Part shown: positions 26,191 through 50,202 of the stretch, in pieces
Layout: every line of letters starts with the position of its first letter
Position numbering within the stretch: position 1 is the stretch's first letter
Assembly (NCBI GenBank): GCA_022827185.1
Contig: JAJDTM010000030.1
Location: 179,769-243,768 of the forward strand
Source of the DNA: Candidatus Poribacteria bacterium
GTDB taxonomy: Bacteria > Poribacteria > WGA-4E > WGA-3G
Reading direction: 5' to 3'
Length of the DNA: 64,000 nt
The notes under the pieces: model-generated
What the model was told of the DNA's origin: nothing
Database searches by the model: none
The model's input: the letters and a program-made list of their open reading frames with translations, nothing else
Position numbers and translations under genes: made by a program

Positions 26191-26237
26191 TCCACCATGC
26201 CAACCCTCCATCTGGGTTTCTTCTATCTTGGTTAGAT

Positions 26238-30679: not shown

Positions 30680-30849
30680 TTTTTAATTTATCGACTCCTG
30701 GGCTGCGCTCCACTATGTTCCGCGCAGGTTTCCTGTTTTAATTCTTACTAAAGTTTGGACATCACTTGTCTCATAGGTGTTGTGTTTTCAAAGGAAGGTC
30801 TATTTTTCTATGAGTTTCACTTATAGGGAACCCTCTGAAAAATACAATA

Positions 30850-30929
30850 AGTTATCGGCACGCACAGGCTAACAGCCTATGCTACAGTAAGTTATCGGAA
30901 TGCACAGGCTAACAGCCTATGCTACTGCA
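30850..30929. repeat. tandem direct repeat (2 x 40 bp, taagttatcgg[c/a]a[c/t]gcacaggctaacagcctatgctac[a/t]g), each with an aggct-aac-agcct hairpin
   Basis: Read from the sequence. Located in the 5' region of the BatA-like gene. Confidence 0.65.
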
Positions 30930-32807: not shown

Positions 32808-32903
32808 TTGGCTATCGGCTATTAGTTGTCGGCTTTCGGTCTTTCCTTCTGATTGCCGTTTGCTGATAGCTGACCGCCTTTCCTCCGAAAACTGATAACT
32901 ATT
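32808..32903. promoter_or_regulatory. cis-element family 2: TTGGCTATCGGCTATT box … AACTGATAACT, abutting the start codon of the 31815..32798 gene
   Basis: Shares its start box and end motif with 36456-36554. Confidence 0.45.
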
Positions 32904-32906
32904 ACA

Positions 32907-33878
32907 CTATAGGGAAGATATTTCTACCAATCGCTTCTCTTGCGCGGAGAGATTTGCCGCGAGTGATATTTCAAGTGTTTTGACGGCATCGCTGTAGGGA
33001 CTTAAAATCGGCGATGCGTCGCCGCTACGGACTGCCTTCACAAAGACTTCATCAATTGTCGGTCCCGGTTCTGTTTTATCTACCCATTCGCCATCTTCCT
33101 GTACCCTAACTCTTGATGGATTCCAATTCAAAAGTTCATCTTCATACAACAAATCCAGCACATTCGCGTTTGACCAGTCGCCCGCATAAGCCCAGGTAGC
33201 AGTCAACGAACCGACAGCACCGCTTGCAAATTGGAGCGAGACGCTATTGGCATCAGGGCAATCTGTCGCTTTAAGAAACCGGTTCGCTTGCATCGCATAA
33301 ACCGACTTCACTTCACCACCCATATAGCGCATCATGTCAACCGTATGTGTCGCTTGTTCGACAAGTTGACCGCCGGATTTGTTCATTTGGCGTAGCCATG
33401 CGTTTGGGTCGCCGTGTCCGGTGCTGCACCAGTACTTACCGACAATCATGTTAACTGTTCTTTCCTTCAAGATTTGCTGTGTGATCCGCGTCGAACCGAG
33501 ATAACGGAGTTGGTAACCGACACATGTTATCAGTCCTGCTTTTGTCACTGCTGCTTCAATTTCACGGGCGATATCAATGTTGATAGCGACAGGCTTCTCA
33601 ACGAGGAAGGGTAAACCGCGTGCAATAACATCGCGTTCTGGTTGCCCATGAACAAAAACGGGGAGGCTGAGATAGACAGCATCCAAGTCATCACGTTCAA
33701 GCATTTCTTGGTGTACCGTGTAAGGGTCCGCATTATGCTTCTCGGCTGCACTTTGGGCGCGTTCAGTTTGAACGTCACACACAGCAACAATTCTTGCTCC
33801 TTCAATGCCTGAGAGTTGGTTCATGTGTCCATTGGCATTACCACCACATCCGATAAATCCGATTTTAACTTCTTTCAT
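32907..33878 (-). CDS. Gfo/Idh/MocA family oxidoreductase
   Basis: IGFIGCGGNANGH Rossmann and the EKP motif. Confidence 0.8.
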   Translation of the reverse strand: MKEVKIGFIGCGGNANGHMNQLSGIEGARIVAVCDVQTERAQSAAEKHNADPYTVHQEMLERDDLDAVYLSLPVFVHGQPERDVIARGLPFLVEKPVAINIDIAREIEAAVTKAGLITCVGYQLRYLGSTRITQQILKERTVNMIVGKYWCSTGHGDPNAWLRQMNKSGGQLVEQATHTVDMMRYMGGEVKSVYAMQANRFLKATDCPDANSVSLQFASGAVGSLTATWAYAGDWSNANVLDLLYEDELLNWNPSRVRVQEDGEWVDKTEPGPTIDEVFVKAVRSGDASPILSPYSDAVKTLEISLAANLSAQEKRLVEISSL

Positions 33879-33907
33879 TTCTACCTCTTTGGTATTTTAT
33901 ACAGACA

Positions 33908-34049
33908 AGACTTACGCAAATTGAATCGGGAAATGGTATATTTTGCTGATTTAACCCCCTAAGTCCCGCTTATCAGGGGGACTTTAAGAGGATTTAACCC
34001 CCTAAATCCCCCTTATCAGGGGGACTTTAAGAGAAAATGCGTAAGTTCT
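33908..34049. mobile_element. MITE-like repeat, copy 2 (terminal inverted repeats agacttacgcaaattg / aatgcgtaagttct; two internal hairpin modules)
   Basis: Read from the sequence; about 142 bp. Confidence 0.6.
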
Positions 34050-34090
34050 AACAGATTTAGACAAAATTGTTGCCGCAAAGTCTGTCCAGT

Positions 34091-35305
34091 TTAACGCGCT
34101 TTGAAATTAACTTGTAGGGCTTTTTCGATGTCTTCGCGCGGGTGGACACCGAACTGTGCTTCAAAATCTCGGTCGAAAGCATCTTCTTCAGCAGGGTCGG
34201 GTTCAAGTGGAAGCTGGATGGGTTGTCGATTTGTGTGGATGGATCGGTGCGCAGCGATTACCATCTCCTGATCGGCTCTACCCATTTCTCCCGTCCAAAG
34301 TGGTTGTGTATCTTCTCGAACGGCGCGAGCGATGCCATCAAGCATCGTTGCCAACGAGATGCCTGTCTCTGAGATATTCGTGTATCGATAAGGATTTACC
34401 CATTCAACCGTCCCCCCTAACGATGCAGGCAATTCTACAAAAATACGGTGCAGTGTCTTGTCTTCGCTATATTCTCGCTGAAATTCGTAGGTTTGTGCTC
34501 TCCCAGCGTTTTCGGTGAGATCCGCGTCAGTGCAGACATTGACCGTTTCACCCCCCGTGGCACCTTGGTTTCCGTTGGTGATAATCGTGCCGCGCTCTCC
34601 ACACGTCTCGAAGCCGACGAGTTTATTTCGTCCGAGGCATCCATTCTTATTGCCTACCATGGCGATCCCGAGTCCGCCGCTATCGAAATCTATGGCGTAA
34701 AACTCAAGGTTTTCGCGATTAAAATCTCGCTTTGCCCGGTCAACGTAAGGGGTAACAGGCATCGTATGTCCGATACTGCTGACTGCTTTCGGGTTGGCAT
34801 CCATACGACACCGTATTGCAGCAAGTCCATGGTAGCCGGTTGTAGAGAAAAGTCGATGGCACTTATGAACGTTTCCGATGACACCTTCCTTGATGAGTTT
34901 ACAGACGAACTGTTCGACAGGAACAAACGGAAAGTTCTCCGATGTCTGGAGTTTCACACCATTTTCGGCAGCGTCGGCGATCATCATATCCATCAAACCG
35001 AGCGTTGGTGCGAGCCCGGTCTCGACGTTGTGCGAGATACCGCGCCGAGAAAGATAACAGGAAACAGTGTGATGCAGTGGTGCAGGCACGACGACATCAC
35101 AGACATCCGGTGAGATTTCGTCAACCATTTTCCTGACATCTGTATAGGCTTTAGTGCCGACTTTCGCTGCGCCCGCCTCTGCCGATTTCGGGTGTGCGTC
35201 ACATACAGCAACGATGTCAAAGGTATCCTTTAATGTCGCTGCTGTTGACAGATGCGCGGCACCGCGTCTGCCGTGACCGATTAACGCATATTTTAGACGT
35301 GACAT
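34091..35305 (-). CDS. Gfo/Idh/MocA family oxidoreductase (long form)
   Basis: YALIGHGRRG Rossmann N-terminus, 404 aa. Confidence 0.7.
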   Translation of the reverse strand: MSRLKYALIGHGRRGAAHLSTAATLKDTFDIVAVCDAHPKSAEAGAAKVGTKAYTDVRKMVDEISPDVCDVVVPAPLHHTVSCYLSRRGISHNVETGLAPTLGLMDMMIADAAENGVKLQTSENFPFVPVEQFVCKLIKEGVIGNVHKCHRLFSTTGYHGLAAIRCRMDANPKAVSSIGHTMPVTPYVDRAKRDFNRENLEFYAIDFDSGGLGIAMVGNKNGCLGRNKLVGFETCGERGTIITNGNQGATGGETVNVCTDADLTENAGRAQTYEFQREYSEDKTLHRIFVELPASLGGTVEWVNPYRYTNISETGISLATMLDGIARAVREDTQPLWTGEMGRADQEMVIAAHRSIHTNRQPIQLPLEPDPAEEDAFDRDFEAQFGVHPREDIEKALQVNFKAR

Positions 35306-35326
35306 TTCGTCCCTCCAACTCTATCA

Positions 35327-35499
35327 AGACTTACGTAAATTGAAGAAAGAAGGCGTATATTTTGAAAAAGGTTGTTATACCTTTAACCCCCTAAATCCCC
35401 CTTATCAGGGGGACTTTGATAACCCCCTAAATCCCCCTTATCAGTAACCCCCTAAATCCCCCTTATCAGGGGGACTTTAAGAAAAAATGCGTAAGTCCT
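35327..35499. mobile_element. MITE-like repeat, copy 3 (terminal inverted repeats agacttacgtaaattg / aatgcgtaagtccta; three internal modules, the middle one truncated)
   Basis: Read from the sequence; about 173 bp. The right repeat abuts the stop codon of the 35502 gene. Confidence 0.6.
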
Positions 35500-35501
35500 A
35501 T

Positions 35502-36449
35502 TTAGTGAACGCACTGATAACCGGTGGCTTCGAGTCTTTCTCGAATTTTGTCTACTTCGGCTGTTGACAGTTGACGGAGTGGTCGGCGCATGGTCATTGA
35601 CGGGAATCTTCCCATCAGCCAGCGTGCGCATTTCATCCGCTGATGGGCATCACTGCTCGGTTCACCGAAGTTGTAGACGATCCGTGCCAATGAATCCACT
35701 TGACTGCGCGCCTTACGTGCGCCAATAAGATCATCGTTGAGGGCGGCATGGACGACATCTACCATCAACTCTGGGACAAAGCCAGCAAATCCGATGAGTG
35801 CGCCATCGCTGCCTTCAAGGAGTGAAGCGAGTAGATACTCGTCATGGCAAGTTAAGATAGGGACATCCGGTGCTGCCGCTCTGAGTTGTTCGTAATCCCA
35901 TCGCCAGCGCGCCATGTCGCGGGTCCCCATTTTGATGCAGATAACTTGCGGGATCTTGACCATTTCCAACATCTCTTCAAGGCTATATCCTGCCTTCGTC
36001 CATGCGGGATATTGATGAACAATAATCGGTATGTCCGCGCCTTCGGCGACATCTTGGAAGTAACCGACTGCGGTTTCGGGTGTTCTGCCGAATCGCAACC
36101 AGTGATGTGCGGGCATTAATAGGATGGCATCCGCGCCGGCTTCCTTTGCGGCGAGTGCGTCGTCAATTGCCGGTAGGCTCCCTTCCGCGCTAACGCCTGA
36201 AACGACTTTAACGCGGTCGCCGACAGCTTCGGCGGTAATCCGCGTAACTTGCTGTCTTTCATGGAGACGAAGGGACATAATTTCGCCGGTGTGTCCATTA
36301 CAGACAACCCCTTTTATTCCAGGGACACCCGCGAGTTCTTGCATGTACTGACGCAATCCGGCTTCGTCAATTGATTCATCTTCGTGAAAGGGGCAGAGCG
36401 TCGCCGGGAATACACCCGCCCATGGATGATGCTGCCAATTCAGTTTCAT
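35502..36449 (-). CDS. dihydrodipicolinate synthase / N-acetylneuraminate lyase family aldolase
   Basis: GVFPATLCPF, VVCNGHTGE, KVVSGV and AGADAILLMP motifs. Confidence 0.75.
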   Translation of the reverse strand: MKLNWQHHPWAGVFPATLCPFHEDESIDEAGLRQYMQELAGVPGIKGVVCNGHTGEIMSLRLHERQQVTRITAEAVGDRVKVVSGVSAEGSLPAIDDALAAKEAGADAILLMPAHHWLRFGRTPETAVGYFQDVAEGADIPIIVHQYPAWTKAGYSLEEMLEMVKIPQVICIKMGTRDMARWRWDYEQLRAAAPDVPILTCHDEYLLASLLEGSDGALIGFAGFVPELMVDVVHAALNDDLIGARKARSQVDSLARIVYNFGEPSSDAHQRMKCARWLMGRFPSMTMRRPLRQLSTAEVDKIRERLEATGYQCVH

Positions 36450-36455
36450 ATTTTA

Positions 36456-36554
36456 TTGGCTATCGGCTATTGGCTATCAGCCGTCAGTAAAGAGAGGTTT
36501 AATTTAATCAATAATTTCTTACCGACAACTGATAACTGATAACTGACAACTATT
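36456..36554. promoter_or_regulatory. cis-element family 2 copy: TTGGCTATCGGCTATTGGCTATCAG … CAACTGATAACTGATAACTGACAACTATT (AGTTATC heptad array)
   Basis: The 21-mer aactgataactgataactgac is identical, in reverse complement, to 48786-48806. Confidence 0.5.
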
Positions 36555-36610
36555 CTCCTGACTGCTTTTACTCAAATTCCGCACGATTTTTTAATTTAAT
36601 TCTATTTTAA

Positions 36611-36640
36611 CTTGATTTTGCATGTAAAATCAAGTATTAT
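36611..36640 (+). promoter_or_regulatory. promoter TTGATT-17-TATTAT overlapped by a 24-bp near-perfect palindrome cttgattttgca|tgtaaaatcaag, upstream of ccmE
   Basis: Read directly. One mismatch in the 12-bp arms. Confidence 0.4.
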
Positions 36641-36741
36641 TTTAAGTAGAAGAATTCATCTTGTCGGTATGGATCGGCTTTATAATAGCAAGATTTGGCT
36701 TTCAAGTTGCGCCAAATAGTGCCTACGGGTTCGTATTAATG

Positions 36742-37200
36742 GAGGATGTGCCGGTGAAAAAACGGAGCAGACTAAAGATTGTGGCTGCGAGTGCCATTTT
36801 GCTGGGCGGTATGGCGTTTTTAGTGGTAGACATGACGAGAAGCACGAGTATGCGACATTTTACGCCAACTTTGCTTGCGGCAGCCGGAGATGAGGCACAC
36901 GATCAACGGGTCCAAGTTGATGGTCTCATCGCAGCGGGGAGTTCGCAATGGGATGCTGTTAATTTTAAACTCACCTTTGCTATCCGGGATCGCGAGACCG
37001 AGGCAACAGTTAATGTGATTTACGAAGATCGGCTTAAACCGGATAACTTTAAGGATGGCGGCAGTGTTTTCGTGGAAGGCAAATACGATGCGACACAGAA
37101 CCTTGTTGTTGCCACTAAACTCATGACGAAATGTGCCTCAAAATACGAAGGTGCAGACAGTGCCGTGCCTACAGATGAAACTTCATACACTTCGGAATAA
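36742..37200 (+). CDS. ccmE: cytochrome c maturation heme chaperone CcmE, Cys-xxx-Tyr variant
   Basis: Transmembrane anchor plus an OB domain aligning to E. coli CcmE. The heme-binding region LMTKCASKY replaces the canonical LAKHDENY (His to Cys). The ORF frame opens at 36661. Confidence 0.7.
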   Translation, partial: EDVPVKKRSRLKIVAASAILLGGMAFLVVDMTRSTSMRHFTPTLLAAAGDEAHDQRVQVDGLIAAGSSQWDAVNFKLTFAIRDRETEATVNVIYEDRLKPDNFKDGGSVFVEGKYDATQNLVVATKLMTKCASKYEGADSAVPTDETSYTSE

Positions 37201-38660
37201 GGAATACATAACGTAAGTTTGATAAAAGCATATTGTCGCGCGAATTTTCGAGTTTGCGCTCATAGCACACAAACTGGAAAGTTTGTGCTACGAGGGCCGC
37301 AAGGTGGTCCTTTGGAGAAAATACTCTTATTGAACGCACATAATTTATTATTAAACTGGCGTTATATAATACTTTAGCACTCCCCCGTCAAACCCCGATG
37401 CTTTAGCTTGGGGATGTAGACAGCTAAGAGCGATCAATGAGAAAAGCACGTAAATTCAAACTTCAGGATCAATCTAATACGATCCAACTCGGCAATATGC
37501 TTGACGATATGTGGGGTATCCACGTGTATATTATGTTGCTTGCCCGCAGGTATTATCGCATGTTTGGTAAAAATCTATCAGCATATCGTTTGAAAGCACA
37601 CGTTAGAAAACTCAAAAAGCGGACGAAAGCGCATTGGGCGGATTTGCCGAGTCAAGTTGTGCAAGACGTTGTATTGCGTTATGGCAAATCGCAAGGTGCT
37701 TTTCTTGATAATATCAAAGACCGTAAAACCGGTAAAACGACGCGCAAAGTGGGTAGACCGAAAATTCAACCGCGTCATAAATATAACTCCATGACGTTCA
37801 CACAAGCGGGGTATGAACTTGAAGACAATCGTATTAAAATCAACTGTATAGATACATGGTTCTCTTTCCATAAACACCGAGAAATCAAAGGAACTATTAA
37901 GACGATCACCATCAAGCGTGATAAATGCGGCGACTATTGGCTATGCTTTTCGTGCGAGGATGTTGACGATTCCGAACCCAAACCCAAGACGGGTAAGAGC
38001 GCAGGATTTGATTACGGAAACAAAACATTCCTCACCAGTAGCGAAAGCGATAAGATAGAATCACCGCAGTTTTTCAAACAATCACTAAAAACGTTGCGAA
38101 CCTTAAGCAAGGCATTAAGTCGGAAAGTCAAAGGTTCAGGTAATTGGTATCGTGCGTGTCGTGCTTTAGCAAGGCTACACAGAAAAGTCGCCCGACAAAG
38201 AGCAGATTGGCAATGGAAACTTGCCACCGAACTTTGCACGGAATACGACACCCTAATTTTTGAGACGCTGAACATTGACGGCATGAAAAGGCTTTGGGGT
38301 CGTAAAGTTTCTGACCATGCCTTCTACCAGTTTCTACAGATTTTAGAGCAGAAGTGTGCGAAGCACGGTAAGGCACTTGAAAAGATTGATCGCTGGACAC
38401 CTACAACGAAACCTTGCAGTGATTGTGGATACCATAATAAAGAACTTTCTCTTTCAGATAGAGAGTGGACGTGTCCCGAATGTGGTTCACACCACGACAG
38501 AGACATCAACGCTGCTATCAATATCAAACAGGCAGGCTTGGCTGCCTAAAGTGGAGTAGACGTAAGACGGTGGACTCTTTGAGAAAACCGCTGACTACGA
38601 GGAAGCACAAGCCCCAACCTTTAGGTTGTGGGTACCTATGACCAGTATGTTCAACGATAC
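37201..38660 (+). mobile_element. IS200/IS605-family element carrying only tnpB (IS1341-like); ends approximate
   Basis: Left-end subterminal hairpin cacaaact/agtttgtg at about 37265-37288. Right-end hairpin caacct-tt-aggttg at about 38618-38636. No tnpA. Confidence 0.6.
37437..38549 (+). CDS. tnpB: TnpB (OrfB) RNA-guided endonuclease-like transposon protein
   Basis: Split RuvC-like motifs and a C-terminal zinc finger CSDCGYHNKE…CPECGSHHDRDINAAINI. Confidence 0.85.
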   Translation: MRKARKFKLQDQSNTIQLGNMLDDMWGIHVYIMLLARRYYRMFGKNLSAYRLKAHVRKLKKRTKAHWADLPSQVVQDVVLRYGKSQGAFLDNIKDRKTGKTTRKVGRPKIQPRHKYNSMTFTQAGYELEDNRIKINCIDTWFSFHKHREIKGTIKTITIKRDKCGDYWLCFSCEDVDDSEPKPKTGKSAGFDYGNKTFLTSSESDKIESPQFFKQSLKTLRTLSKALSRKVKGSGNWYRACRALARLHRKVARQRADWQWKLATELCTEYDTLIFETLNIDGMKRLWGRKVSDHAFYQFLQILEQKCAKHGKALEKIDRWTPTTKPCSDCGYHNKELSLSDREWTCPECGSHHDRDINAAINIKQAGLAA

Positions 38661-38690
38661 CTTTTTAATTTTAGGGAGGCACAGCAGCGC

Positions 38691-40709
38691 ATGACTGCGG
38701 AAATCGGACAAGCCGCTATATACCTCTCTGTGCTTTCATGTTTATGGGCAATCGGTTTCCTCAGTTTCGGGCTATGGATACGAAATGCCCGTGCTATCCA
38801 GAGCGGCAGAAACGCCGTTGTTGCCACCTTCATCCTTATCAGTATTGCGACTGGGGCATTAATCTACGGTTTTGTGACCGATGATTTCTCAATGAAATAC
38901 GTAGTTGAGGTCTCAAGCGCAGCACAACCCCTACTTTATAAAATCACTGCAATCTGGGGTGCCATGTCTGGTTCGCTCTTGTTCTGGCTCTGGCTGCTTA
39001 CTGTTGGTGGTGCTATTGTTGTCTGGCAGAACTATCAACGTAACAAACAGACGCAAGATACCTTAGCAGACTACTCCCTGATTCCGATCGCTATTGTTCA
39101 GCTATTCTTCACCATCCTTGTCACAGGTTTAATAGACGGCATTTACAATCCACTCGCCCGGTTTCCGGACGGACAGGTCTTTGCCGACGGTCAAGGCATG
39201 AACACGCTTCTCCAGACCCCACTCATGGCGATCCATCCACCGACATTATATATCGGTTGGATTAGCTTGACGATACCGTTTGCGTTCGCAGTTGGCGCGC
39301 TGGCATCGGGTAGAATCGGCAGCGGCTGGATCCTCCGCTCACGCAGATGGATGCTCTTTTCATGGATTATACTGACCATCGGTATCACGCTCGGTGGCAA
39401 TTGGGCATATCAGGAACTCGGTTGGGGCGGTTATTGGGCATGGGATCCTGTTGAAAATGCCTCTTTTATGCCGTGGCTCCTCGGCACCGCGTATCTACAC
39501 TCTGTGATGATCCAAGAGAAGCGGAATATGCTCAAACTTTGGAATATTCTCCTGATTACCCTTGCCTTCCAATTTACACTCTTGGGGACTTTCATTACGC
39601 GTAGCGGAATTATCACATCGGTGCATGCTTTCGGCGGATCGGGTATTGGTGGGTATTTCCTTACTTTTATTTTAGCGTCAACAGCCGGGGTCATCGGACT
39701 CATCATCTATCGTTGGAACCGGCTTAAGAGTGCGAATCGTTTAGAGTCCCTTCTCTCCCGTGAAAGTGCCTTTCTTCTGAATAACTGGCTCCTTGTCGGG
39801 TTAACCCTAATTATCCTCTGGGGTACGTTGTGGCCGATTATCTCTGAGGCGATCAACGGTGAAAAATCTTCTGTTCCTGAAGCCTTTTTCAATAAAGTTG
39901 TGATTATTCCGGGGTTGCTGCTTCTATTCCTGACAGGTGCCGGTCCGATCATTTCATGGAAAAAAATTACTGCTAACAATTTTCGACGCATGTTTTTCTT
40001 GCCGCTTGTTATCGGTTTAATTGGCGGTGCTTTGACCTGGGGATTCCTTGCATTAATAGGATATACTTTTCCGCTGTATTCAGTGCTCTGTAGTTTTGCT
40101 GCTGTTTTTGTGCTCGCCGCAATCTTTGCTGAGTTTTATCGGGGTGCAAAACTCCGCGCGAAACGACAGGAGACCTCCTTCGTCAACGGCTTGAATCTCC
40201 TTATTCAGCGTAACAAGAGACGGTATGGCGGTTACATCATCCATATCGGCATTGTTATCCTCTATATAGGCATTATGGGATCGAAGGGCTATTTTCTGCT
40301 TGAATCTCAAAGTATGACACTCGGGGGATCCATGGAAGTAGGCAAGTATAAACTGACAATGATAGACTCATTTGAGAAAGAATACTCGAACTATCTCCGA
40401 AGCGGTGTTGTTTTCGATGTTGAAAAGAACGGGAAACATATAGGGACAATGGAGCCCGCGCTTCACGCCTACTACAAAGCCAAACCCGATGAACAACCTA
40501 CAAAGGAATCAGCCATCCAGCACTTGGGGGTGAACGACCTCTATATCGCCCTTGCCAGCATTCCACGAAATATCAAGACAGGCGGTATTGTGAACGTTCA
40601 GGTGTATTACAACCCTCTGATTGGCGTTGTCTGGATTGGTGTTGCTGTGATGGTGTTAGGTGGAATCGTTGCGATAGCCGAGAAATCTGAACGCAGTGGA
40701 GATTCATGA
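38691..40709 (+). CDS. ccmF: cytochrome c-type biogenesis protein CcmF (heme lyase)
   Basis: MTAEIGQAAIYLSVL start like CcmF. WGGYWAWDPVEN is the WWD-domain motif. More than 12 transmembrane helices. RBS gggagg at 38672. Confidence 0.85.
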   Translation: MTAEIGQAAIYLSVLSCLWAIGFLSFGLWIRNARAIQSGRNAVVATFILISIATGALIYGFVTDDFSMKYVVEVSSAAQPLLYKITAIWGAMSGSLLFWLWLLTVGGAIVVWQNYQRNKQTQDTLADYSLIPIAIVQLFFTILVTGLIDGIYNPLARFPDGQVFADGQGMNTLLQTPLMAIHPPTLYIGWISLTIPFAFAVGALASGRIGSGWILRSRRWMLFSWIILTIGITLGGNWAYQELGWGGYWAWDPVENASFMPWLLGTAYLHSVMIQEKRNMLKLWNILLITLAFQFTLLGTFITRSGIITSVHAFGGSGIGGYFLTFILASTAGVIGLIIYRWNRLKSANRLESLLSRESAFLLNNWLLVGLTLIILWGTLWPIISEAINGEKSSVPEAFFNKVVIIPGLLLLFLTGAGPIISWKKITANNFRRMFFLPLVIGLIGGALTWGFLALIGYTFPLYSVLCSFAAVFVLAAIFAEFYRGAKLRAKRQETSFVNGLNLLIQRNKRRYGGYIIHIGIVILYIGIMGSKGYFLLESQSMTLGGSMEVGKYKLTMIDSFEKEYSNYLRSGVVFDVEKNGKHIGTMEPALHAYYKAKPDEQPTKESAIQHLGVNDLYIALASIPRNIKTGGIVNVQVYYNPLIGVVWIGVAVMVLGGIVAIAEKSERSGDS

Positions 40710-40727
40710 TAAGCGAGGCGTAAGACG

Positions 40728-41306: not shown

Positions 41307-41364
41307 ACTCGGCAATTTTTTCGTACGCAATAGAATTCACGCGTGGTTTTCGGAGAGGTTCTTT

Positions 41365-41712
41365 ATGTCTTTTCTTGTACTTTTATGGATGGTAATCTTT
41401 GGCATCCTGCTACTCGTTTATCTGGGATTTCCGATTTTCTCAAAAACGGGTGGACAACATGTTGTAACGTCCGAAGAGGTTATTGAAGAACGGCGACGGA
41501 CCCTCTTTCAGGAACGTGAAAACAGCTACGCAGCGTTGGCGGATCTCGATGAGGACTACGAGACTGGGAAACTCTCAGAAGCCGATTATCAAGAACTACG
41601 CGCGGAGCTTTTACAAGAGACTGCGCGCGTCATCATGCAACTCGAAAATGAGTCTTTGTCGGATGTGGAAGCAGAGATTGAGCGATTTAAACAGCAACAG
41701 CGCGGAACATAA
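41365..41712 (+). CDS. small membrane protein with C-terminal SHOCT-like motif (possibly CcmI-like)
   Basis: One transmembrane helix, then DLDEDYETGKLSEADYQELRAELL. Confidence 0.35.
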   Translation: MSFLVLLWMVIFGILLLVYLGFPIFSKTGGQHVVTSEEVIEERRRTLFQERENSYAALADLDEDYETGKLSEADYQELRAELLQETARVIMQLENESLSDVEAEIERFKQQQRGT

Positions 41713-41713
41713 T

Positions 41714-43048
41714 ATGTACCCGAACGCATTTCATACGCGGTTGAAAACCGCATCTACCAAAATAGGCAACTCGCAATTTGGCTCTATCGCCGTCTGGTGT
41801 ATGCGCAGCTTGTTAGCGATTGCCCTAATTTTTTTCGCCTCGGTTTCTGCAACACAGGCACAAACGGCAGAATTTGGCGACATCCGAGGCGCGGTTATTG
41901 ACAAAAAACTCGAAAAACCGCTTGTTTCGCATCCTGTCACTCTCACGGTTCATAAGACGGATACCGTTGAGACACAAGAGACGACCACAGATGAAAAAGG
42001 AAATTACCGTTTCGCAGATTTGCTGCTTGATCCAAGTGTTCACTATACGGTGTCAACCGTCCATGACGATACCGACTATACTGAAAAGGATCTGGTGCTG
42101 TCAACTTGGGTTCCGAATATTGAGATTAACTTTGATGTTGGGGCATTTACGGATGACACTGCGCAAATCCTTGTTAAGTCGTATACTTTCATCATTGGAC
42201 CTCCACCTCCAGACCATCCACCGGATGGGGCTGTCACGGTCGCTGAAGCAATTGGGCTTGAAAACCTGAGCCCTCTCGCGTTTAGAACAGAACACGGTTC
42301 AGAAAGAGTTGGGGTGCATTTAACACTTCCAAACGGTGTTGAGGGGTTTCAACCGCATTTGTCAGCGGCACTCACGATGAACGCTAACACCAATCAAGCC
42401 GTCCTTAGAACGCCATTACCGTCCGGAGAATCGCAGTTAGGTTACAATTACATTTTTCATGTTGAGAGAGACAAATTGGATTTATCCCGTCGTTTGAATT
42501 TTAACACGATGAGATTCTATTTCTTTGTTCCAGAAGGTATCGGTTTTGTGCCGCGTGCCAAGTTTTTCGGTGCACCGAAACGCGAACAAATCCACGGCAC
42601 CGTATATCTAATATATGAAAGCAGTGAGCACAAGACGTTCGCGGCAGGTGAAACAGTTGACTTAGCCCTTAATGTAAATATGCGTGCTGCTGGTGGTGCC
42701 TTACCGGGGCAGACATCTGATCTCGGGCAGTTGATTCTTATCGCTGTCGCTGCGGCATTAACGGGTGGTTTTTTCGTGGCAGCACTCTTCAAACTCCGCG
42801 CAGCCAGCAATACTACAGAATCTGATACTGAGGATACTTCAACACCGCCAGACGCGGGTTGGCTCCGTAAACTGAATTCCGATGACCGTGAGCATGTCCG
42901 CGTTGCCAGGCTTGAATTTATTACACATCTTGATGATAAGTACGAGAAGCAAGAGATCTCGGAGCGCGTCTACAAACGCTTGCGCCGAGAGCAAACAGAG
43001 CGTCTCACCACACTCTTAGAAGACCAAAAAAGGGGGAACAATGCATAG
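41714..43048 (+). CDS. exported protein with carboxypeptidase-regulatory-like domain, C-terminal transmembrane anchor and SHOCT-like tail
   Basis: Signal peptide, GAVIDKKLEKP…EKGNYRF, a transmembrane LILIAVAAALTGGFFVAALF, and a tail …ISERVYKRLRREQ. Stop/start TAAtATG coupling with the upstream gene. Confidence 0.45.
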   Translation: MYPNAFHTRLKTASTKIGNSQFGSIAVWCMRSLLAIALIFFASVSATQAQTAEFGDIRGAVIDKKLEKPLVSHPVTLTVHKTDTVETQETTTDEKGNYRFADLLLDPSVHYTVSTVHDDTDYTEKDLVLSTWVPNIEINFDVGAFTDDTAQILVKSYTFIIGPPPPDHPPDGAVTVAEAIGLENLSPLAFRTEHGSERVGVHLTLPNGVEGFQPHLSAALTMNANTNQAVLRTPLPSGESQLGYNYIFHVERDKLDLSRRLNFNTMRFYFFVPEGIGFVPRAKFFGAPKREQIHGTVYLIYESSEHKTFAAGETVDLALNVNMRAAGGALPGQTSDLGQLILIAVAAALTGGFFVAALFKLRAASNTTESDTEDTSTPPDAGWLRKLNSDDREHVRVARLEFITHLDDKYEKQEISERVYKRLRREQTERLTTLLEDQKRGNNA

Positions 43049-43436
43049 CAAACACCACATTGCTGATTTGATAGTCATGTTGGGGCATATAGACGAAAAC
43101 GTGCGGGACACCGCGAAGGCAGAATTAATTGCCATAGGTAAACCGGCTATTCCGCAGCTCATTGATGTCCTTACCCAAGAGTGCTGGCATATATCTGGGT
43201 ATGGTGCCGAGTTTTACACCCACATCGAAGGGTCTGCTCTCCCGGTTTACATGGAACAGATGGCGAATAACGCTTCGGAGGTCTTGGCACGCATCGGAGA
43301 GTCCACTGTCCCGAAGCTGACGGCGGAGCTCACCAGAGCCGAACGCGAGTTTTCGGAATGGTTTTATAAATACTTGCGACCTGAACAGACGGACCGTCTT
43401 ATCACTATGTTGGCGTATGTTAAGAAAGGCGAGTAG
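43041..43436 (+). CDS. HEAT-repeat (PBS-lyase-like) protein
   Basis: Repeated IGKPAIPQLIDVL-type HEAT units. Confidence 0.5.
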   Translation: MHSKHHIADLIVMLGHIDENVRDTAKAELIAIGKPAIPQLIDVLTQECWHISGYGAEFYTHIEGSALPVYMEQMANNASEVLARIGESTVPKLTAELTRAEREFSEWFYKYLRPEQTDRLITMLAYVKKGE

Positions 43437-44054
43437 ATGGAAACGGAACACATTGTAGCCGATTTAATCTATGATTTGTCAGAGTTGGATGACGATATCC
43501 GTGAGGCTGCGAGAGAAGAGTTGGTTGCTATAGGTGAACCTGCGATTCCGCAACTCGTTGAGGCACTCGCTGATAACCTTGGGGATGTGGTTGAACAAGC
43601 CACTGATGTCTTGGCTGCCATCGGTGAACCGGCAATCCCTGCACTTATAGATGAGATGGCGATCGCTGAGCGGTACCATGCACTCGCTATCGGTGATGTG
43701 CTGAGCCGCATAGGTGAGCCAGCCGTCCCGGTTTTGGTTGAAGCGTTGTCTGACAAACTCAATGAAGAGTTCCGCGAATATGCAGCGCGCGCGCTTAATC
43801 TGATGGGGGGCGCGGCAATTCGTGCGATCCCTGCGCTTATTGAGGCTTTGAGCGATCCGTCGGATGATGTTCGGTCTTATGTTGCCTACACGTTTTCCAA
43901 AATGGAGGGTGCAGCAGTGGATGCGGTGCCTGCGCTTATTGAGGCACTTGCTGATGAATCCGAAGAGGTCCGAAATCATGTGGCTTTTGCGTTAGAAAAA
44001 ATTGGAACCCCGGAAGCGAAACAGGCACTTGAAACGTTAAATGCAAACCCCTGA
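43437..44054 (+). CDS. HEAT-repeat (PBS-lyase-like) protein
   Basis: Five repeats of the IGEPAIPxLIEAL…DxVR pattern. Confidence 0.6.
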   Translation: METEHIVADLIYDLSELDDDIREAAREELVAIGEPAIPQLVEALADNLGDVVEQATDVLAAIGEPAIPALIDEMAIAERYHALAIGDVLSRIGEPAVPVLVEALSDKLNEEFREYAARALNLMGGAAIRAIPALIEALSDPSDDVRSYVAYTFSKMEGAAVDAVPALIEALADESEEVRNHVAFALEKIGTPEAKQALETLNANP

Positions 44055-44160
44055 AAAGGTCGGTCCGAAGATCGTTATGGACCTGTACCCTGATGTGTGT
44101 CATAGGAGGTGCAGGTTTATAAAATCTGCTATATAGCGCGTTCGTTGAGACTTAAAAAAC

Positions 44161-44189
44161 TTGAAAAAATGAGCAAAATGTAGTATAAT
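44161..44189 (+). promoter_or_regulatory. sigma70 promoter TTGAAA-17-TATAAT upstream of korA
   Basis: ttgaaa aaatgagcaaaatgtag tataat. Confidence 0.5.
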
Positions 44190-44383
44190 TAAAAAAAGTA
44201 GAATGTTATTATGTGTTATGAATATTAAATAAGGTGCAAATATCGCAATGTAACTAACAAACGAATCAATTTGCTTATTTGTCCATCCATCTGATGTCGT
44301 TGGGTTTATTAAACTGTAGTGTATCTTCGGTGAATTGTGCGGTATCAGCATGGAATACGAAAAATTATTAGAAGGGAGCCAAG

Positions 44384-46168
44384 ATGGCAAAATACGACTT
44401 TGTAATCGCTGTAGGAGGGGCACCCGGGCAGGGAATAGACTCTGTTGGACAGGTTTTGACTCGGATCTGCGCCCGGCACGGTTTGTCCGTCTTTACCTAT
44501 AGCGCTTATCAATCCCTCATCCGCGGTGGTCATACCTTCCTCACTGCCAGAATCAGTTCTGAACCGGTTGCTAACCACGGCGACAAGCTTGATCTGGTTA
44601 TTGCCTTAGACCGGAACAGCTTGGAGACACACCTTCCACACGTTGCTCCCGGTGGCACGCTCATCTATAATAGCGATGATGTCAAAGCAGCCCCAGAGCG
44701 CGATGACATACAACTGGCACCTCTGTCCTATAAAGAGCTGTCTAACGACACCGACAGAAAGAAGATAATGCTAAATGTCTGTATGCTCGGTGCAGCGATG
44801 AAAATGGTGGGTGGAGATTTAAAAGTGTTTGAGGACATGCTCACTGTTCAATTCCTCAAACGGAAAGGCCAAGCAGTAGTAGACGAGAACATCGGTGTCG
44901 CGCGTGCCGGTTATAATCATGCAGCTGAAAATTTCACCCCATTTGATACTCAATTCCAGAAACAGGAGCCAGCCCTTGCTGTTGTTGATGGGAATTCGGC
45001 GATGGCGATGGGTGGTGCAGCGGCTGGTGTCAAATTTTATGCTGCCTATCCGATGAGTCCGTCAACGGGTGTTCTTCACTGGATGGCAGCGAATGCGCGG
45101 GATCTCGGTATTCTGGTGCGCCAATGTGAGGATGAAATTAGTGTTGTCAATATGGTTATTGGTGCAGCGCATGTGGGGAGTCGCGCGATGTGTGCAACAT
45201 CAGGTGGTGGTTTCGCTCTGATGTCAGAAGCCATTGGTAGTGCTGGGATGATGGAAATTCCGATCGTTGTTATTAACGTCCAGCGTGGGGGGCCTTCGAC
45301 AGGTTTACCTACAAAAACGGAGCAGGGAGATTTATGGCAGTTGCTGGGTGCAAGCCAAGGCGATTTCCCGAAAATCATCGTTTCTCCGACGAGCATCATG
45401 GACGGGTTTGATACCATCCCTGAACTCTTCAATCTCGTAGACAAGTTTCAATGTCCCGGTATGGTGCTTTCTGATCTTACACTCTCTATGGGTTTCACGA
45501 CGTTTGATCCGGATACTATCAATTGGCAGCCTGAAATAGATCGCGGCGAGCTCATCAACGGTCCTGTAGAGCTGGACGGTGAATACCTCCGTTATGCGAT
45601 TACAGATAGTGGAGTCTCCCCCCGCGCGATTCCGGGGACGCCTGGGCACATGCACGTTGTTGCTACCGATGATCACGATGAAGATGGCGGTCTAATTAGT
45701 GACGAGTTCACGAATCCGCACAAACGGCGTGATATTATGGAGAAGCGGCAACGCAAGATGGAAGGTATTGTTGAACTTCTCCCGCCTCCGACTTTTGAGG
45801 GTCCCGAAGATGCGGAAGTTACGTTGATTGGCTGGGGCTCGACGCATAGTGTGATTAGTGAAGCGGCACAAATGTTGACGGAGACAGGCCTTGCCACCAA
45901 TCATATCCACTTCAAGTGGCTCTATCCGATGGACGAGGACGCGATCAACGAAGTGCTTGCGAAATCTGCGTATTCGATTATCGTTGAGTGCAACTACACG
46001 GGTCAATTCGCCCGTTTCTTACGGAGTGAGACCGGCTTTAAGGCAGACAGTCACATCCGTAAATACGACGGTGAACCGTTTATGCCGCACCACGTGGTTG
46101 ATGGGGCGCGTGAACTTTTGAACAGTAAAACGGATCTTTATGTCCCGTATCAAGAGATTGTTGTCTAA
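44384..46168 (+). CDS. korA: 2-oxoacid:ferredoxin oxidoreductase, fused gamma-alpha subunit
   Basis: N-terminal POR gamma-like domain, then the alpha-subunit transketolase-like domain. Confidence 0.85.
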   Translation: MAKYDFVIAVGGAPGQGIDSVGQVLTRICARHGLSVFTYSAYQSLIRGGHTFLTARISSEPVANHGDKLDLVIALDRNSLETHLPHVAPGGTLIYNSDDVKAAPERDDIQLAPLSYKELSNDTDRKKIMLNVCMLGAAMKMVGGDLKVFEDMLTVQFLKRKGQAVVDENIGVARAGYNHAAENFTPFDTQFQKQEPALAVVDGNSAMAMGGAAAGVKFYAAYPMSPSTGVLHWMAANARDLGILVRQCEDEISVVNMVIGAAHVGSRAMCATSGGGFALMSEAIGSAGMMEIPIVVINVQRGGPSTGLPTKTEQGDLWQLLGASQGDFPKIIVSPTSIMDGFDTIPELFNLVDKFQCPGMVLSDLTLSMGFTTFDPDTINWQPEIDRGELINGPVELDGEYLRYAITDSGVSPRAIPGTPGHMHVVATDDHDEDGGLISDEFTNPHKRRDIMEKRQRKMEGIVELLPPPTFEGPEDAEVTLIGWGSTHSVISEAAQMLTETGLATNHIHFKWLYPMDEDAINEVLAKSAYSIIVECNYTGQFARFLRSETGFKADSHIRKYDGEPFMPHHVVDGARELLNSKTDLYVPYQEIVV

Positions 46169-46177
46169 CAAAGGAGG

Positions 46178-47092
46178 ATGGATCAGATGGCGAGAAGAGC
46201 GAGAAAAGAAAGACCTGTTCAAGGCGCGCCGACAGCGCGAGATTTTAAAGGTGATGTTAACCCAGATTGGTGTGCCGGTTGTGGTGATTTCGGTGTGTTG
46301 AACGCGCTACAAGGTGCTTATGCAAAACTCGGTCGTGGCAATCATGATCACCTGACAGTAAGTGGGATTGGGTGTTCCTCTAACCTTCCTGGTTATGTCA
46401 AAACGTATGGGATGCATACGCTACACGGTCGTGCGTTGGCGGTTGCAACGGGTGCTAAATTTGCCAATCACGCGTTGAATGTTGTCGTCACTGGTGGTGA
46501 TGGTGATGGTTACGGCATCGGTGGAAATCATTTTATTCATACGATGCGAAAAAATATTGATCTCCTCTACATTGTCATGAATAACGAGACGTACGGGTTG
46601 ACAGTCGGACAAGCCTCACCAACGACTATAGTAGGAGAACAGACGAAAAGCACGCCGTTCGGTAATTTAGAGACCCCTCTGAATCCGGTTGCGATGGCAA
46701 TTGTCGCGGGTGCGACTTATGTCGCAAGAGCATATAGTTCTGACGGCCCAAAACTCGCGGAATTGATGTATAACGGGATGCAACACAAAGGATTTGCATT
46801 CATTGATGTTATCAGTCCTTGTGTGACTTGGAAGGGAGGGGCGCGAGTAATTTTCGATTACTGGAAGGAGCGGGTCCAATACCTTGAAGATCATGACACA
46901 AGTGACAGAGCCGCTGCACTTGAACAAGCCGTCAAGACGGGTCATGAGACGCAGCTTGGGTTATTCTACCACGATACGAGCCGGCAATCACTGGATCAAA
47001 TGGAACCTGTTTTAGAAAATGGGCCCATAGCACATCAACCGCTCGGCATCAGCAAAGAACAAGGCGATGCGATTATCCAGAAAATGATGTAA
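46178..47092 (+). CDS. korB: 2-oxoacid:ferredoxin oxidoreductase beta subunit (thiamine-pyrophosphate binding)
   Basis: CAGCGDF, and the thiamine-pyrophosphate motif GGDGDGYGIGGNH. Confidence 0.85.
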   Translation: MDQMARRARKERPVQGAPTARDFKGDVNPDWCAGCGDFGVLNALQGAYAKLGRGNHDHLTVSGIGCSSNLPGYVKTYGMHTLHGRALAVATGAKFANHALNVVVTGGDGDGYGIGGNHFIHTMRKNIDLLYIVMNNETYGLTVGQASPTTIVGEQTKSTPFGNLETPLNPVAMAIVAGATYVARAYSSDGPKLAELMYNGMQHKGFAFIDVISPCVTWKGGARVIFDYWKERVQYLEDHDTSDRAAALEQAVKTGHETQLGLFYHDTSRQSLDQMEPVLENGPIAHQPLGISKEQGDAIIQKMM

Positions 47093-47149
47093 ATATGAAC
47101 GGAGAGACGGGTCATTGGGCTTGTCTATCCGTTTGATTTATGATATTGG

Positions 47150-47200
47150 CTGTTGGGGCGGGTTGTATCCCGCCCACTGCCTTTTTTTATTGCCTACTAC
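47150..47200 (+). terminator. rho-independent terminator candidate after korB (imperfect GC stem, then T7)
   Basis: ggctgttggggcggg ttgtat cccgcccactgcc ttttttt. Confidence 0.45.
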
Positions 47201-47215
47201 AGGGGCGTTCACACC

Positions 47216-47917
47216 ATGCGTCTTCGTGCTTCCCAACTCACTAAAGATTTCGGAAATCGATCAATTGTCAAAAATGCCACGCTTTCGGTTAATCCTGGAG
47301 AGGTGGTTGCGATTTTCGGTCCTAACGGTGCCGGTAAGACGACGCTCATCAAAATTCTTGCAACCCTCCTGAAACCGACATCTGGCGAGCTTGAGATTGA
47401 AGGCACGGATGCAATTGCGGATTACTCAGATGTGCGGAGCATGCTGGGTGTGGTTATCCATGAAATGCTCGCTTATCCAGCCTTCAGTCCGTATGAAAAT
47501 CTCAGGTTTTTTGGACAGATGTACGGCGTTGAGCAGTTAGAACGCCGCGTAACAACGCTCCTTGCTGAAGTCGGCTTGCAGCGCTTTGCTCACGAACCGC
47601 TGCACATCTTCTCACGTGGCATGACGCAGCGCGTTATGATTGCCAGAGCCCTTCTTCATTACCCGTCAGTGCTATTGTTTGACGAACCCTTCTCTGGATT
47701 AGATGCTGCTGCGAGGCAGTTTGTCATAACGCGTATCGGACAAGAGCAACGGGATGGTAAAGGCATCGTCGTTACTACACATAATACAGAGTTAGGGTAT
47801 CTCGTGGGTACACGGTTTTTCTTTATGATAAATGGAGAATTGGAAGAGGTTGCGCGGAAAGACGAGATTGCAGCAGAGACGTTATTGCAGATGTACGAGG
47901 AGCGGTCGGTTTTTTAA
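47216..47917 (+). CDS. ccmA: ABC transporter ATP-binding protein, heme exporter CcmA-like
   Basis: Walker A GPNGAGKTT, the ABC signature FSRGMTQRV, and Walker B LLFDEP. Lies next to ccmB. Confidence 0.7.
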   Translation: MRLRASQLTKDFGNRSIVKNATLSVNPGEVVAIFGPNGAGKTTLIKILATLLKPTSGELEIEGTDAIADYSDVRSMLGVVIHEMLAYPAFSPYENLRFFGQMYGVEQLERRVTTLLAEVGLQRFAHEPLHIFSRGMTQRVMIARALLHYPSVLLFDEPFSGLDAAARQFVITRIGQEQRDGKGIVVTTHNTELGYLVGTRFFFMINGELEEVARKDEIAAETLLQMYEERSVF

Positions 47918-47956
47918 CGATTGGGTTCACTCCGTACGGGTGCTGTAAAAGCATCA

Positions 47957-48048
47957 AGACTTATGCAAATTTAGCATGTGGATCAAGGTTTTTGATTTTT
48001 AACCCCCTAAATCCCCCTTATCAGGGGGACTTTAACTGCGTAAGTCCT
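47957..48048. mobile_element. MITE-like repeat, copy 4 (terminal inverted repeats agacttatgcaaatt / ctgcgtaagtcct; one internal module), between ccmA and ccmB
   Basis: Read from the sequence; about 92 bp. Confidence 0.6.
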
Positions 48049-48089
48049 AAGAATGAGCAACAAGCATTCCGGTAAGAATTGAGACACAC

Positions 48090-48782
48090 ATGAAGGCACT
48101 CCGTCAGATTGGTGCGTTGATTCGCAAGGATCTTGGACTTCAATTCCGTTCAAAAGAGACGCTGGTATTGATTTTCGTTTTCAGCGTGTTAGTCGTCCTG
48201 ATTTTTGCTTTTGCGTTTGGTCCGGTTTTCCCAGAAAAGGAGGCGCGCGGCAAATTAGCCGCCAGTGTGCTCTGGACAGCGTTCGTTTTTGCAGGAATTA
48301 TTACCTTGAATCGTTCATTTGCAGTGGAACGCTCCCACGGTGCTTTGCACGGTATTCGGCTTACGGGTATTGATGTGAGCAATCTCTATCTTTCCAAAGT
48401 TGTCAGCAACGTCATTTTTCTATTTTTATTGGAAATTGTCATTACGCCTATCACGCTTCAATTCTTAGATTTGCTTGATGTGGTGACGATGGGCATATTA
48501 CTGAAGCTGCTCGGCGTGCTGAGTATCGGTACACTTGGGTTTTGTGCCGTTGGTGTACTGTTAGCGGGCATGTCTACAAATACAAGCGGTGGCGAAAGCC
48601 TACTTTCCGTCATTCTACTTCCGCTTGTCATTCCAATCATTATGGGCGGTGCGAAATGCACCGTTGCGCTTCTGGTGACGGGTGGATTGGGCGACGGATT
48701 TTGGTTGAATCTGCTTGTTGGATATAGTTTAGTCTTTTTAGCAGCCGCGTATCTACTCGCGGATTTTGTCATTGAGGAATAG
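48090..48782 (+). CDS. ccmB: heme exporter permease CcmB
   Basis: CcmB-typical N-terminus (LIRKDLGLQFRSKETLVLIFVFSV), six transmembrane helices. Confidence 0.75.
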   Translation: MKALRQIGALIRKDLGLQFRSKETLVLIFVFSVLVVLIFAFAFGPVFPEKEARGKLAASVLWTAFVFAGIITLNRSFAVERSHGALHGIRLTGIDVSNLYLSKVVSNVIFLFLLEIVITPITLQFLDLLDVVTMGILLKLLGVLSIGTLGFCAVGVLLAGMSTNTSGGESLLSVILLPLVIPIIMGGAKCTVALLVTGGLGDGFWLNLLVGYSLVFLAAAYLLADFVIEE

Positions 48783-48785
48783 CGA

Positions 48786-48806
48786 GTCAGTTATCAGTTA
48801 TCAGTT
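48786..48806 (+). promoter_or_regulatory. AGTTATC heptad array gtcagttatcagttatcagtt, 95 bp upstream of eno
   Basis: Identical 21-mer to the array at 36526-36554 (opposite strand, same orientation relative to the downstream gene). Confidence 0.5.
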
Positions 48807-48861
48807 TGCCTCGCAGTGAGAGTTAAGAGCAGCTTGATTGTGTTAGGCGCAGTGAAATTGA

Positions 48862-50202
<1,341 letters not shown>

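Follow-up and report, generated by a model that had tools for sequence, protein, structure and literature searches.

AGTTATC heptad arrays beside sugar and enolase genes of a Poribacteria genome: probable arms of a palindromic repeat family rather than sites of a regulon

Arrays of the heptad AGTTATC and a 16-nt box, TTGGCTATCGGCTATT, stand upstream of an aldolase gene of the DapA/DHDPS family (dapA-like), an oxidoreductase gene of the GFO/IDH/MocA family (GFO) and the enolase gene (eno) in Candidatus Poribacteria, and are probably the two arms of one imperfectly palindromic intergenic repeat family of this phylum. The DNA in question, called the window below, is a stretch of 64,000 nucleotides from assembly GCA_022827185.1 (contig JAJDTM010000030.1, positions 179,769 to 243,768 of the forward strand). 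An earlier note on this sequence had treated arrays and box as two kinds of motif and had suggested a common DNA- or RNA-binding factor, or a regulon of central-carbon and sugar genes. The elements are more readily understood as selfish or neutral repeats, resembling repetitive extragenic palindromic (REP) sequences and miniature inverted-repeat transposable elements (MITEs), than as conserved operator or leader sites of such a regulon, and we consider this reading likely. With similar confidence, the feature may be placed as a REP/MITE-like palindromic variant of the class of heptamers that includes TAACTGA and the short tandemly repeated repetitive (STRR) sequences, in a phylum from which the class was previously unreported.

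The 21-mer GTCAGTTATCAGTTATCAGTT occurs exactly twice in the window, at 36527-36547 (minus strand) and 48786-48806 (plus strand), and had no match in 100 shuffled sequences. The identity of the two copies was therefore noted correctly before; only the limits then given for the first of them, 36526-36554, were slightly loose. The copies are mutually inverted on the chromosome, yet with respect to the genes behind them, dapA-like and eno, both read in the same direction. Period-7 arrays were called by Tandem Repeats Finder (TRF) at 36527-36551 (3.6 copies), 48787-48806 (2.9 copies) and 36454-36478 (TATCGGC, 3.6 copies). The box was found exactly at both positions for which it had been described, 32808 and 36456, and a one-heptad version was likewise present at 32890-32903 as AACTGATAACTATT. 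The degenerate double heptad RGYYRTCRGYYRTC, with at most one mismatch, gave 19 matches against 2.8 expected, and 12 of the 19 are at the three sites, all of which are intergenic, between called or Pfam-supported genes. What did not survive is the separation of box and heptads. The box reads GGCTATC GGCTATT GGCTATC and is thus a heptad array itself, complementary to the AGTTATC array as its opposite arm; GGCTATC and AGTTATC are the same heptad, two transitions apart.

Twelve arms were aligned, with right arms reverse-complemented onto left arms. They came from the window, the near-identical locus L001, the sister genome L275, and L122, L131, L038 and L010 (L numbers denote the loci compared). 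Their consensus consists of (T)TTWAATAG, about four TTRTCAG heptads and an inner TTAAGAGG-like motif (RGTTAAGAG). The whole palindrome is ~100 bp long, with the GGCTATC array as the arm opposite to the AGTTATC array. Since the arms align to one consensus and pair into a hairpin, they are one element and not two motifs. In both full copies of the window it is the start-proximal arm that carries the drifted heptad, changed from AGTTATC to GGCTATC. On the coding strand, the dapA-like copy is ordered as an AGTTRTC array, a 45-nt spacer, a complementary GATAGCC array and the tail AAUAAAAU, followed by the AUG. The GFO copy has outer arms AATAGTTATCAGTTTTCGG and CCGAAAGCCGACAACTAAT, begins 3 nt past the TAG stop codon of the upstream gene, and has an extra AGCCGATAGCCAAC-AAAAAATC tail that runs to the ATG at 32798. 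The copy at eno is a lone arm. It begins 4 nt past the stop codon of ccmB, and its end is well ahead of the Shine-Dalgarno (SD) sequence and TTG start of eno.

A profile of the arms was searched with nhmmer against ~300 kb of Poribacteria DNA, namely the 64-kb window and ~240 kb of related loci. In the window, the dapA-like copy was matched at 36451-36500 (+) and 36556-36515 (-) with E ~1e-10, and the GFO copy at 32808-32840 (+) and 32912-32872 (-); no further arms were found in the 64 kb beyond the five at the three sites (Table 1). Outside the window, the profile recovered the training arms and, in addition, four arms of L122 and L038 from outside the training set (E 1.4e-6 to 3e-3) and the truncated arm of the dapA-like element at the start of L129; the ~300 kb gave no other matches. 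A near-perfect copy of the element lies at 15211-15346 of L275, from the sister genome ~97% identical to the window. The palindromic form is the rule in the Poribacteria loci read here. Shared inverted arms in dispersed copies, which mark REP sequences and MITEs, are thus seen in the alignment of 12 arms, in the nhmmer matches and in folds with z down to -5.8.

Table 1. Coordinates of the heptad elements, adjoining genes and other features of the window (nt, nucleotides).
Feature	Coordinates	Strand	Description and basis
Complete heptad palindrome	36450..36556	-	Between promoter-like region and dapA-like ATG (36449); sequence, TRF, fold, nhmmer
5' arm of dapA-like element	36515-36556	-	AATAG TTGTCAG TTATCAG TTATCAG TTGTCGG TAAGA
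3' arm of dapA-like element	~36456-36490	-	CTTTACTGAC GGCTGAT AGCCAAT AGCCGAT AGCC
Composite (nested) heptad palindrome	32808..32912	-	Occupies the 108-nt spacer between two GFO/IDH/MocA genes
Lone arm upstream of eno	48783..48835	+	Three AGTTATC heptads, 11-nt insert, inner motif AGTTAAGAGC; nhmmer E 3.7e-7
DapA/DHDPS-family aldolase gene (dapA-like)	35502..36449	-	Pfam PF00701, E 8e-35; no SD
GFO/IDH/MocA oxidoreductase gene	31815..32798	-	Pfam; SD-bearing spacer replaced by element
Enolase gene (eno)	48901..50202	+	Pfam; TTG start, conserved AAGGAGAA SD
Divergent promoter-like hexamers on 24-bp perfect palindrome CTTGATTTTGCATGTAAAATCAAG	36599..36640 (palindrome 36611-36634)	.	Consensus scan
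MITE-like CCCCCTTATCAGGGGG family, copies listed	13284, 33948-34033, 35390-35475, 48000-48035		Window

Syntenic loci of relatives were collected through homologs of the aldolase and CcmB proteins, which are named as Candidatus Poribacteria. Their DNA is 99% (L001), ~94% (L129), 89% (L131) and ~82% (L122 and L123) identical to the window, and the dapA-like protein of L124 has 87% identity. The dapA-like element is present in L001, L122 and L123, the sequence of L129 starts inside it, and in L124 it is missing as a clean gap of ~97 nt. Among the relatives compared, the GFO element was found in the window and L001 only. The orthologous spacer of L122 and L123 is 34 nt long with AAAGGAG, that of L124 has AAAGGAA, and the element is absent in all three. 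At eno, the arm has three heptads in the window, two in L131 (plus AGTTAAGAGC) and none in L129, L130 and L132; each of the five lineages keeps the AAGGAGAA SD and TTG start, whether it carries the arm or not, and eno shows no dependence on the arm. The positions are thus lineage-specific at the window sites, with copy number changing by 7 nt. The window also has close relatives in ENA ERZ25068633, which holds two large, closely related Poribacteria genomes (L274 and L275): ctg160222 (6.25 Mb), with ~99.3% (99.1-99.7%) identity to it, and the circular ctg160228 (6.71 Mb), with ~97.2%.

Some spacers that hold heptads in one lineage hold other repeats in the next. The ccmB-eno gap of L129 is a 216-nt spacer of GGAAGG repeats (L129 10694-10909), and the spacer between a sulfatase and a MoxR gene contains a heptad palindrome in L122 and a GGAAGG/CCTTCC palindrome of period 8 in the window. 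These swaps indicate that different repeat families occupy the same spacers in different lineages. The GGAAGG/CCTTCC element (period ~8; window 26100-26240, TRF rows 26114-26172) is a second kind of short-period palindrome in its own right.

Given these comparisons, it is very improbable that heptads and box are the sites of one regulator for a central-carbon and sugar regulon of dapA-like, GFO and eno. The proposal could point to the common orientation of the identical 21-mers before dapA-like and eno, to identical 16-mers before two genes of one sugar-type cluster, and to a report that heptamers near promoters affect NtcA/LexA action at recO of Nostoc (bioRxiv 10.1101/2022.06.06.494920). However, some relatives lack the motif at eno, at the GFO gene and at dapA-like, a finding that the earlier note had itself named as refuting. 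Gain and loss between such close relatives leave no conserved switch for sugar genes apparent. In addition, eno has its own SD and a freely varying spacer, and its copy is a half element directly behind the ccmB stop codon. dapA-like heads a same-strand cluster in which three GFO/IDH/MocA oxidoreductase genes follow downstream; dapA-like and the GFO gene are probably in one operon and so are not independent cases. In other Poribacteria loci, elements adjoin genes for a sulfatase, a GT9 heptosyltransferase and a MoxR ATPase, and one stands between the genes for a SpoU methylase and an alcohol dehydrogenase; the genes beside the elements are functionally unrelated. Sites of a regulon would be conserved at orthologs and have targets of coherent function, and neither was observed. 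The common DNA- or RNA-binding factor for sugar and central-carbon genes is accordingly unsupported after the ortholog comparison.

A further point against the regulon is that the gap between dapA-like and ccmE offers a better candidate for an operator or bidirectional promoter than the heptads do. Two divergent promoter-like sites have their -35-like TTGATT hexamers as the arms of the palindrome CTTGATTTTGCATGTAAAATCAAG; the promoter consensus scan gave four sites against 1.3 expected, with TTGATT-N18-TAAAAT at 36599-36640. Unlike the heptads, this block is conserved throughout L001, L122, L123 and L129, and L124 retains part of it. From its position, the dapA-like element would lie inside a predicted 5' untranslated region of ~145 nt. 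On the plus strand, genes for CcmE, CcmF, CcmA and CcmB were assigned by Pfam.

The heptad itself belongs to a known repeat: (AACTGAT)n and AGTTATC are the TAACTGA heptamer in another rotation or on the other strand. MacGregor (2015, Front Microbiol 6:1397, PMC4679880) described 169 TAACTGA sets in the orange Guaymas 'Maribeggiatoa', mostly intergenic and mostly just before start codons without a ribosome-binding site (RBS). For BOGUAY, 115 of 170 sets are intergenic, point to a start codon and have no RBS (PMC4679880). The function of the downstream genes shows no pattern in that study, the positions are strain-specific with 7-nt indels, and a role in translation was proposed, not demonstrated. 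The repeat was also reported there from other Beggiatoaceae, 15 cyanobacteria and five Bacteroidetes, and the start-codon-pointing pattern of BOGUAY does not hold in Microcystis. With 3.6 copies at 36527-36551 and 2.9 at 48787-48806, the window arrays have the two or more tandem copies that mark this class.

Likeness to the published repeats extends to the identical unit, two to four copies per set, sets 'split' by related heptads, intergenic location, arrays or variants that abut SD-less starts, strain-specific positions, 7-nt indels and the absence of a pattern in gene function. The differences concern host, orientation and form. Poribacteria are a phylum unreported in that study. The exact TAACTGA arrays here run in reverse relative to the dapA-like and eno genes, at 70-95 nt from the starts, whereas the start-proximal arrays are a drifted TAGCCGA variant, forward-oriented and 8-11 nt from SD-less ATGs. 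Also, inverted pairs with shared non-repeat termini are found here, whereas BOGUAY has one indirect repeat in 170 sets. A literature search found no paper on Poribacteria and heptamers together.

A scan for a 19-mer of the array, with one genome per GTDB species, returned at least 120 loci. Among the loci listed, most are cyanobacterial, and Parabeggiatoa, Thiomargarita, Bacteroidota, two Poribacteria, Planctomycetota, Acidobacteriota, one Verrucomicrobia genome and others are also represented. In this sample, again among the loci listed, 131 of 136 arrays lie outside long open reading frames (ORFs), and an inverted partner was present at up to 160 nt in 8 of the 136, so that the palindromic form is a minority overall. 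The 19-mer (TAACTGA)n was also found in at least 120 predicted viral contigs of IMG/VR (L145-L264), of which some carry several arrays. L160, the one contig checked, gave DNA methyltransferase and ParB-like matches only and showed no structural phage genes. When metagenomes were scanned for the box with its A-rich tail, AATAGCCGATAGCCAAYAAAA, 12 matches were obtained, with no obvious ortholog of the window genes. Several of them are other AATAGCC/GATAGCC heptad palindromes and few stand before convincing ORFs; the box is therefore no marker of a conserved leader. Metagenome contigs L134, L138, L141, L142 and L143 carry (AATAGCC/GATAGCC)n with an inverted (GGCTATC)n partner beside a gene start. 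Thus, the drifted heptad of the box also exists elsewhere as a palindromic repeat of its own.

Other members of this class are the STRR sequences, heptanucleotide repeats of heterocystous cyanobacteria reportedly described by Mazel and colleagues in 1990, whose units STRR1-3 are said to be CCCCAGT, TTGGTCA and CAACAGT. Like STRR sequences, the arrays here are tandem 7-nt units, dispersed in intergenic DNA in many copies, of unknown function and variable among strains. They differ in unit sequence and in host, and their architecture is palindromic. The use of STRR sequences in fingerprinting is mentioned in PMC5088731.

As selfish or neutral DNA of the REP/MITE type, the elements would be copied into spacers or would expand within them, most of them beginning within a few bases of the upstream stop codon. 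The number of heptads varies, the arms decay by transitions, and even between closely related lineages elements appear, vanish or give way to other repeat families. Changes in heptad number probably come from replication slippage, on top of copying. Slippage without any copying, by which simple repeats would arise independently from chance seeds under a shared mutational preference for the heptad, is a quite unlikely explanation. According to PMC4679880, which cites Mrazek (2007), no other long simple repeats are as common in bacteria as heptamers, with slippage as the proposed cause. Copy number does differ by 7-nt steps between relatives, and L130 and L132 have TGTCGATTTGCC at the position where the window has TATCAGTTTGCC, a possible seed. 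Independent origins fit poorly, however, with arms that share non-repeat flanks (the AATAG terminus and the inner TTAAGAGG), keep a roughly constant length of four heptads and recur as inverted pairs, and with the identity of the heptad in many phyla. Moreover, the GFO copy, which is young, and the older dapA-like copy share a 21-nt terminus with one mismatch (TTTTRTTGGCTATCGGCTATT), to which both the derived GGCTATC-GGCTATT variant and the A-rich flank belong. The shared terminus, the non-repeat termini and the roughly constant arms point to copying between sites; that the form is palindromic and its termini are defined likewise argues for copying over slippage alone.

The likeness to REP sequences, bacterial interspersed mosaic elements (BIMEs), REP doublets forming hairpins (REPINs) and MITEs lies in short imperfect palindromes of spacers, often right after stop codons, in hairpins that are probably transcribed, in presence or absence among strains and in families that compete for spacers. 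A difference is that the arms here are tandem heptamers. Other differences and several further observations weigh against a selfish or neutral nature. Unusually for a classical MITE, the copies have interiors that are unrelated to one another; inspection of the dapA-like, GFO and L275 borders showed no consistent target-site duplication; and no linked RAYT or transposase was identified in the loci read, only a TnpB gene being nearby. Copy number and gene association are drawn from the ~300 kb of Poribacteria DNA and are not genome-wide figures. The dapA-like copy has been kept down to ~82% DNA identity and so has been tolerated for long, at least. The repeated flush position between stop and start codon could reflect function and not tolerance. 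Finally, selection on RNA may be indicated by the sense-strand hairpin of the dapA-like copy, with seven G-U pairs and no A-C mismatch, and by one series of G-C to G-U to A-U over three lineages.

Two candidate routes of mobility were rejected. L122, L123 and L129 carry the element but lack the TnpB gene at 37437-38549, and ccmE lies between gene and element. A mobile ccm block (36.5-48.8 kb) bordered by the inverted 21-mers is contradicted by the lack of similarity beyond the arrays and by the dapA-ccmE...ccmB-eno synteny, which is unchanged in relatives without one array or without either. The TnpB gene itself is of the IS605 type, with OrfB_IS605 and a Cas12f1-like TNB domain, and stands between ccmE and ccmF; its presence in L001 and absence from L122, L123 and L129 suggest a recent insertion into the cytochrome c maturation cluster.

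Both start-proximal boxes end 8-11 nt ahead of an ATG without a GGAG-type SD, the ATG starts being fixed by an in-frame stop codon or by the start of the Pfam domain; the missing SD remarked on earlier was therefore confirmed at these two boxes. The eno array ends 94 nt before the TTG start, close to the 95 bp first given, and this start has its own AAGGAGAA. In the relatives, an SD core was found in 76 of 117 called genes, so that SD-less starts are a minority, not rare. The elements fill whole spacers, often starting 0-10 nt past a stop codon and ending 0-13 nt before a start, and at the GFO gene the AAAGGAG or AAAGGAA of the orthologs is replaced in the window by GATAGCCAACAAAAAATC. The earlier idea of an unusual leader in place of the RBS was thus right in that the SD is displaced by the element, and is unsupported in making of it the leader of a regulon. 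A normal SD is kept downstream of the element at L038 660-683, at the alcohol dehydrogenase gene of L275 and at eno of the window.

The dapA-like element folds to -36.6 kcal/mol on the minus strand (z -5.1) and to -23.1 kcal/mol on the plus strand (z -1.6). The GFO copy folds better on the plus, antisense strand (-38.4 kcal/mol, z -4.5), the antisense strand is likewise favoured by the MoxR copy of L122, and the lone eno arm has no significant RNA structure (z 0.0). With the dapA-like copy favouring sense and the other two antisense, selection for a sense-strand hairpin as a general property was rejected. Between lineages, three substitutions in the dapA-like stem keep pairs and four break them, in a comparison of three distinct sequences only, and the stem energy in L122 falls to -26.1 kcal/mol. 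Three preserving against four breaking changes lend no clear support by covariation to a structured RNA, and a scan of the whole window with Rfam gave no family at the gathering score. A scan for intrinsic terminators called none of the three elements, the terminator-like calls in the three scanned regions lying outside them, and by inspection the dapA-like hairpin has no small upstream ORF that stops at its foot.

These data also bear on a post-transcriptional control module in the sense of MacGregor (2015), in which the arrays replace the SD and co-regulate dispersed genes at translation. An RNA-binding protein (S1, cold-shock or CsrA-like) would read the heptads, or the hairpin would gate access of the ribosome. 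We regard such a module as unlikely, though deserving some weight; it is compatible with a mobile origin, by exaptation, and overlaps the repeat reading. It would explain why heptads end 0-13 nt before an SD-less ATG at two window genes, at MoxR (L122) and at GT9 (L038), with an SD present in relatives without the element, and the layout is that reported for BOGUAY. The strength of the dapA-like sense hairpin and its compensatory series would also be in keeping. Furthermore, AGGAG lies at the 5' foot of this hairpin and the AUG 8 nt past the 3' foot, so that folding could carry AGGAG near the AUG. Hairpin-bridged or 'split' ribosome-binding sites occur, for example in gene 38 and gene 25 of phage T4. 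The dapA-like layout may resemble them, but it is seen in one copy only, other elements having no SD at the 5' foot. The module is opposed by the inconsistent strand preference of the folds, by the pair-breaking majority (four of seven) and lowered energy of the L122 dapA-like stem, by the copies that keep a normal SD and by the absence of elements from orthologs; in addition, no heptad-binding protein is known in any organism.

Whether selfish or co-opted, an element inside a transcript would form a long hairpin. Where the SD has been displaced, the A-rich element end (AAYAAAAAU) may provide an unstructured, SD-independent start region, and at intercistronic copies the ribosomes that finish the upstream gene may open the hairpin, a form of translational coupling. 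A bolder and improbable version is that the heptad palindromes are, in Poribacteria and patchily in other phyla, a horizontally spreading expression cassette, inserted flush between stop and start codon and removing the SD. Downstream translation would in that case depend on the opening of the hairpin by the upstream ribosome, or by an RNA-binding protein or helicase that reads the heptads. That many IMG/VR contigs have the 19-mer would be consistent with a phage or another mobile element as vector; if true, such a cassette would add a layer of translational coupling and control that is transferable and independent of the SD.

Other repeats of the window had been linked to the heptads by single matches. 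A MITE-like family, with the hairpin CCCCCTTATCAGGGGG beside TAACCCCCTAAAT, has six copies in the window. TTATCAG is indeed the loop 7-mer of the CCCCCTTATCAGGGGG copies; this is one heptad, with a chance of matching roughly estimated at ~3%, and may be coincidence. TAAGTTATCGG, which does occur in the 40-bp tandem repeat, is likewise a single-heptad overlap that may be coincidental. Between the window and L001, which are 99% identical, a 62-nt block sets the MITE-like copies downstream of dapA-like apart, so that the copy number of this family is changing at present. The 40-bp tandem repeat (2.1 copies, 30843-30925) and a HEPN/nucleotidyltransferase gene (31004-31771) stand between the last GFO gene and a GATase1-like/VWA gene; the two flanking genes are adjacent in L122, so that this stretch looks like an insertion. 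A second 40-bp tandem repeat, unrelated in sequence, lies at 17747-17826. In L038, another Poribacteria genome, a small hairpin module, GGTTTTCNNNGAAAACC / GATTTTTCGCAGAAAAATC, alternates with the heptads and is repeated to three copies within 8 kb (580-600, 3755-3775 and 3800-3825).

For the biology of these bacteria, the main consequence is that an apparent operator or leader shared by enolase and sugar genes is a repeat family, which guards against a false regulon call. The published range of TAACTGA, covering Beggiatoaceae, cyanobacteria and a few Bacteroidetes, is extended by Poribacteria, and the scans also match Planctomycetota, Acidobacteriota, Verrucomicrobiota and many predicted viral contigs. 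A palindromic form of the repeat with defined termini is documented here. The repeated displacement of the SD by an A-rich element end amounts to a natural experiment on SD-independent initiation, and the pair ctg160222 and ctg160228 is well suited for dating gains and losses of the element. How the heptads are copied and why they are present in distant phyla and in many predicted viral contigs are questions from 2015 for which there is now a somewhat better handle. Current understanding would change only if a function or a copying mechanism were found.

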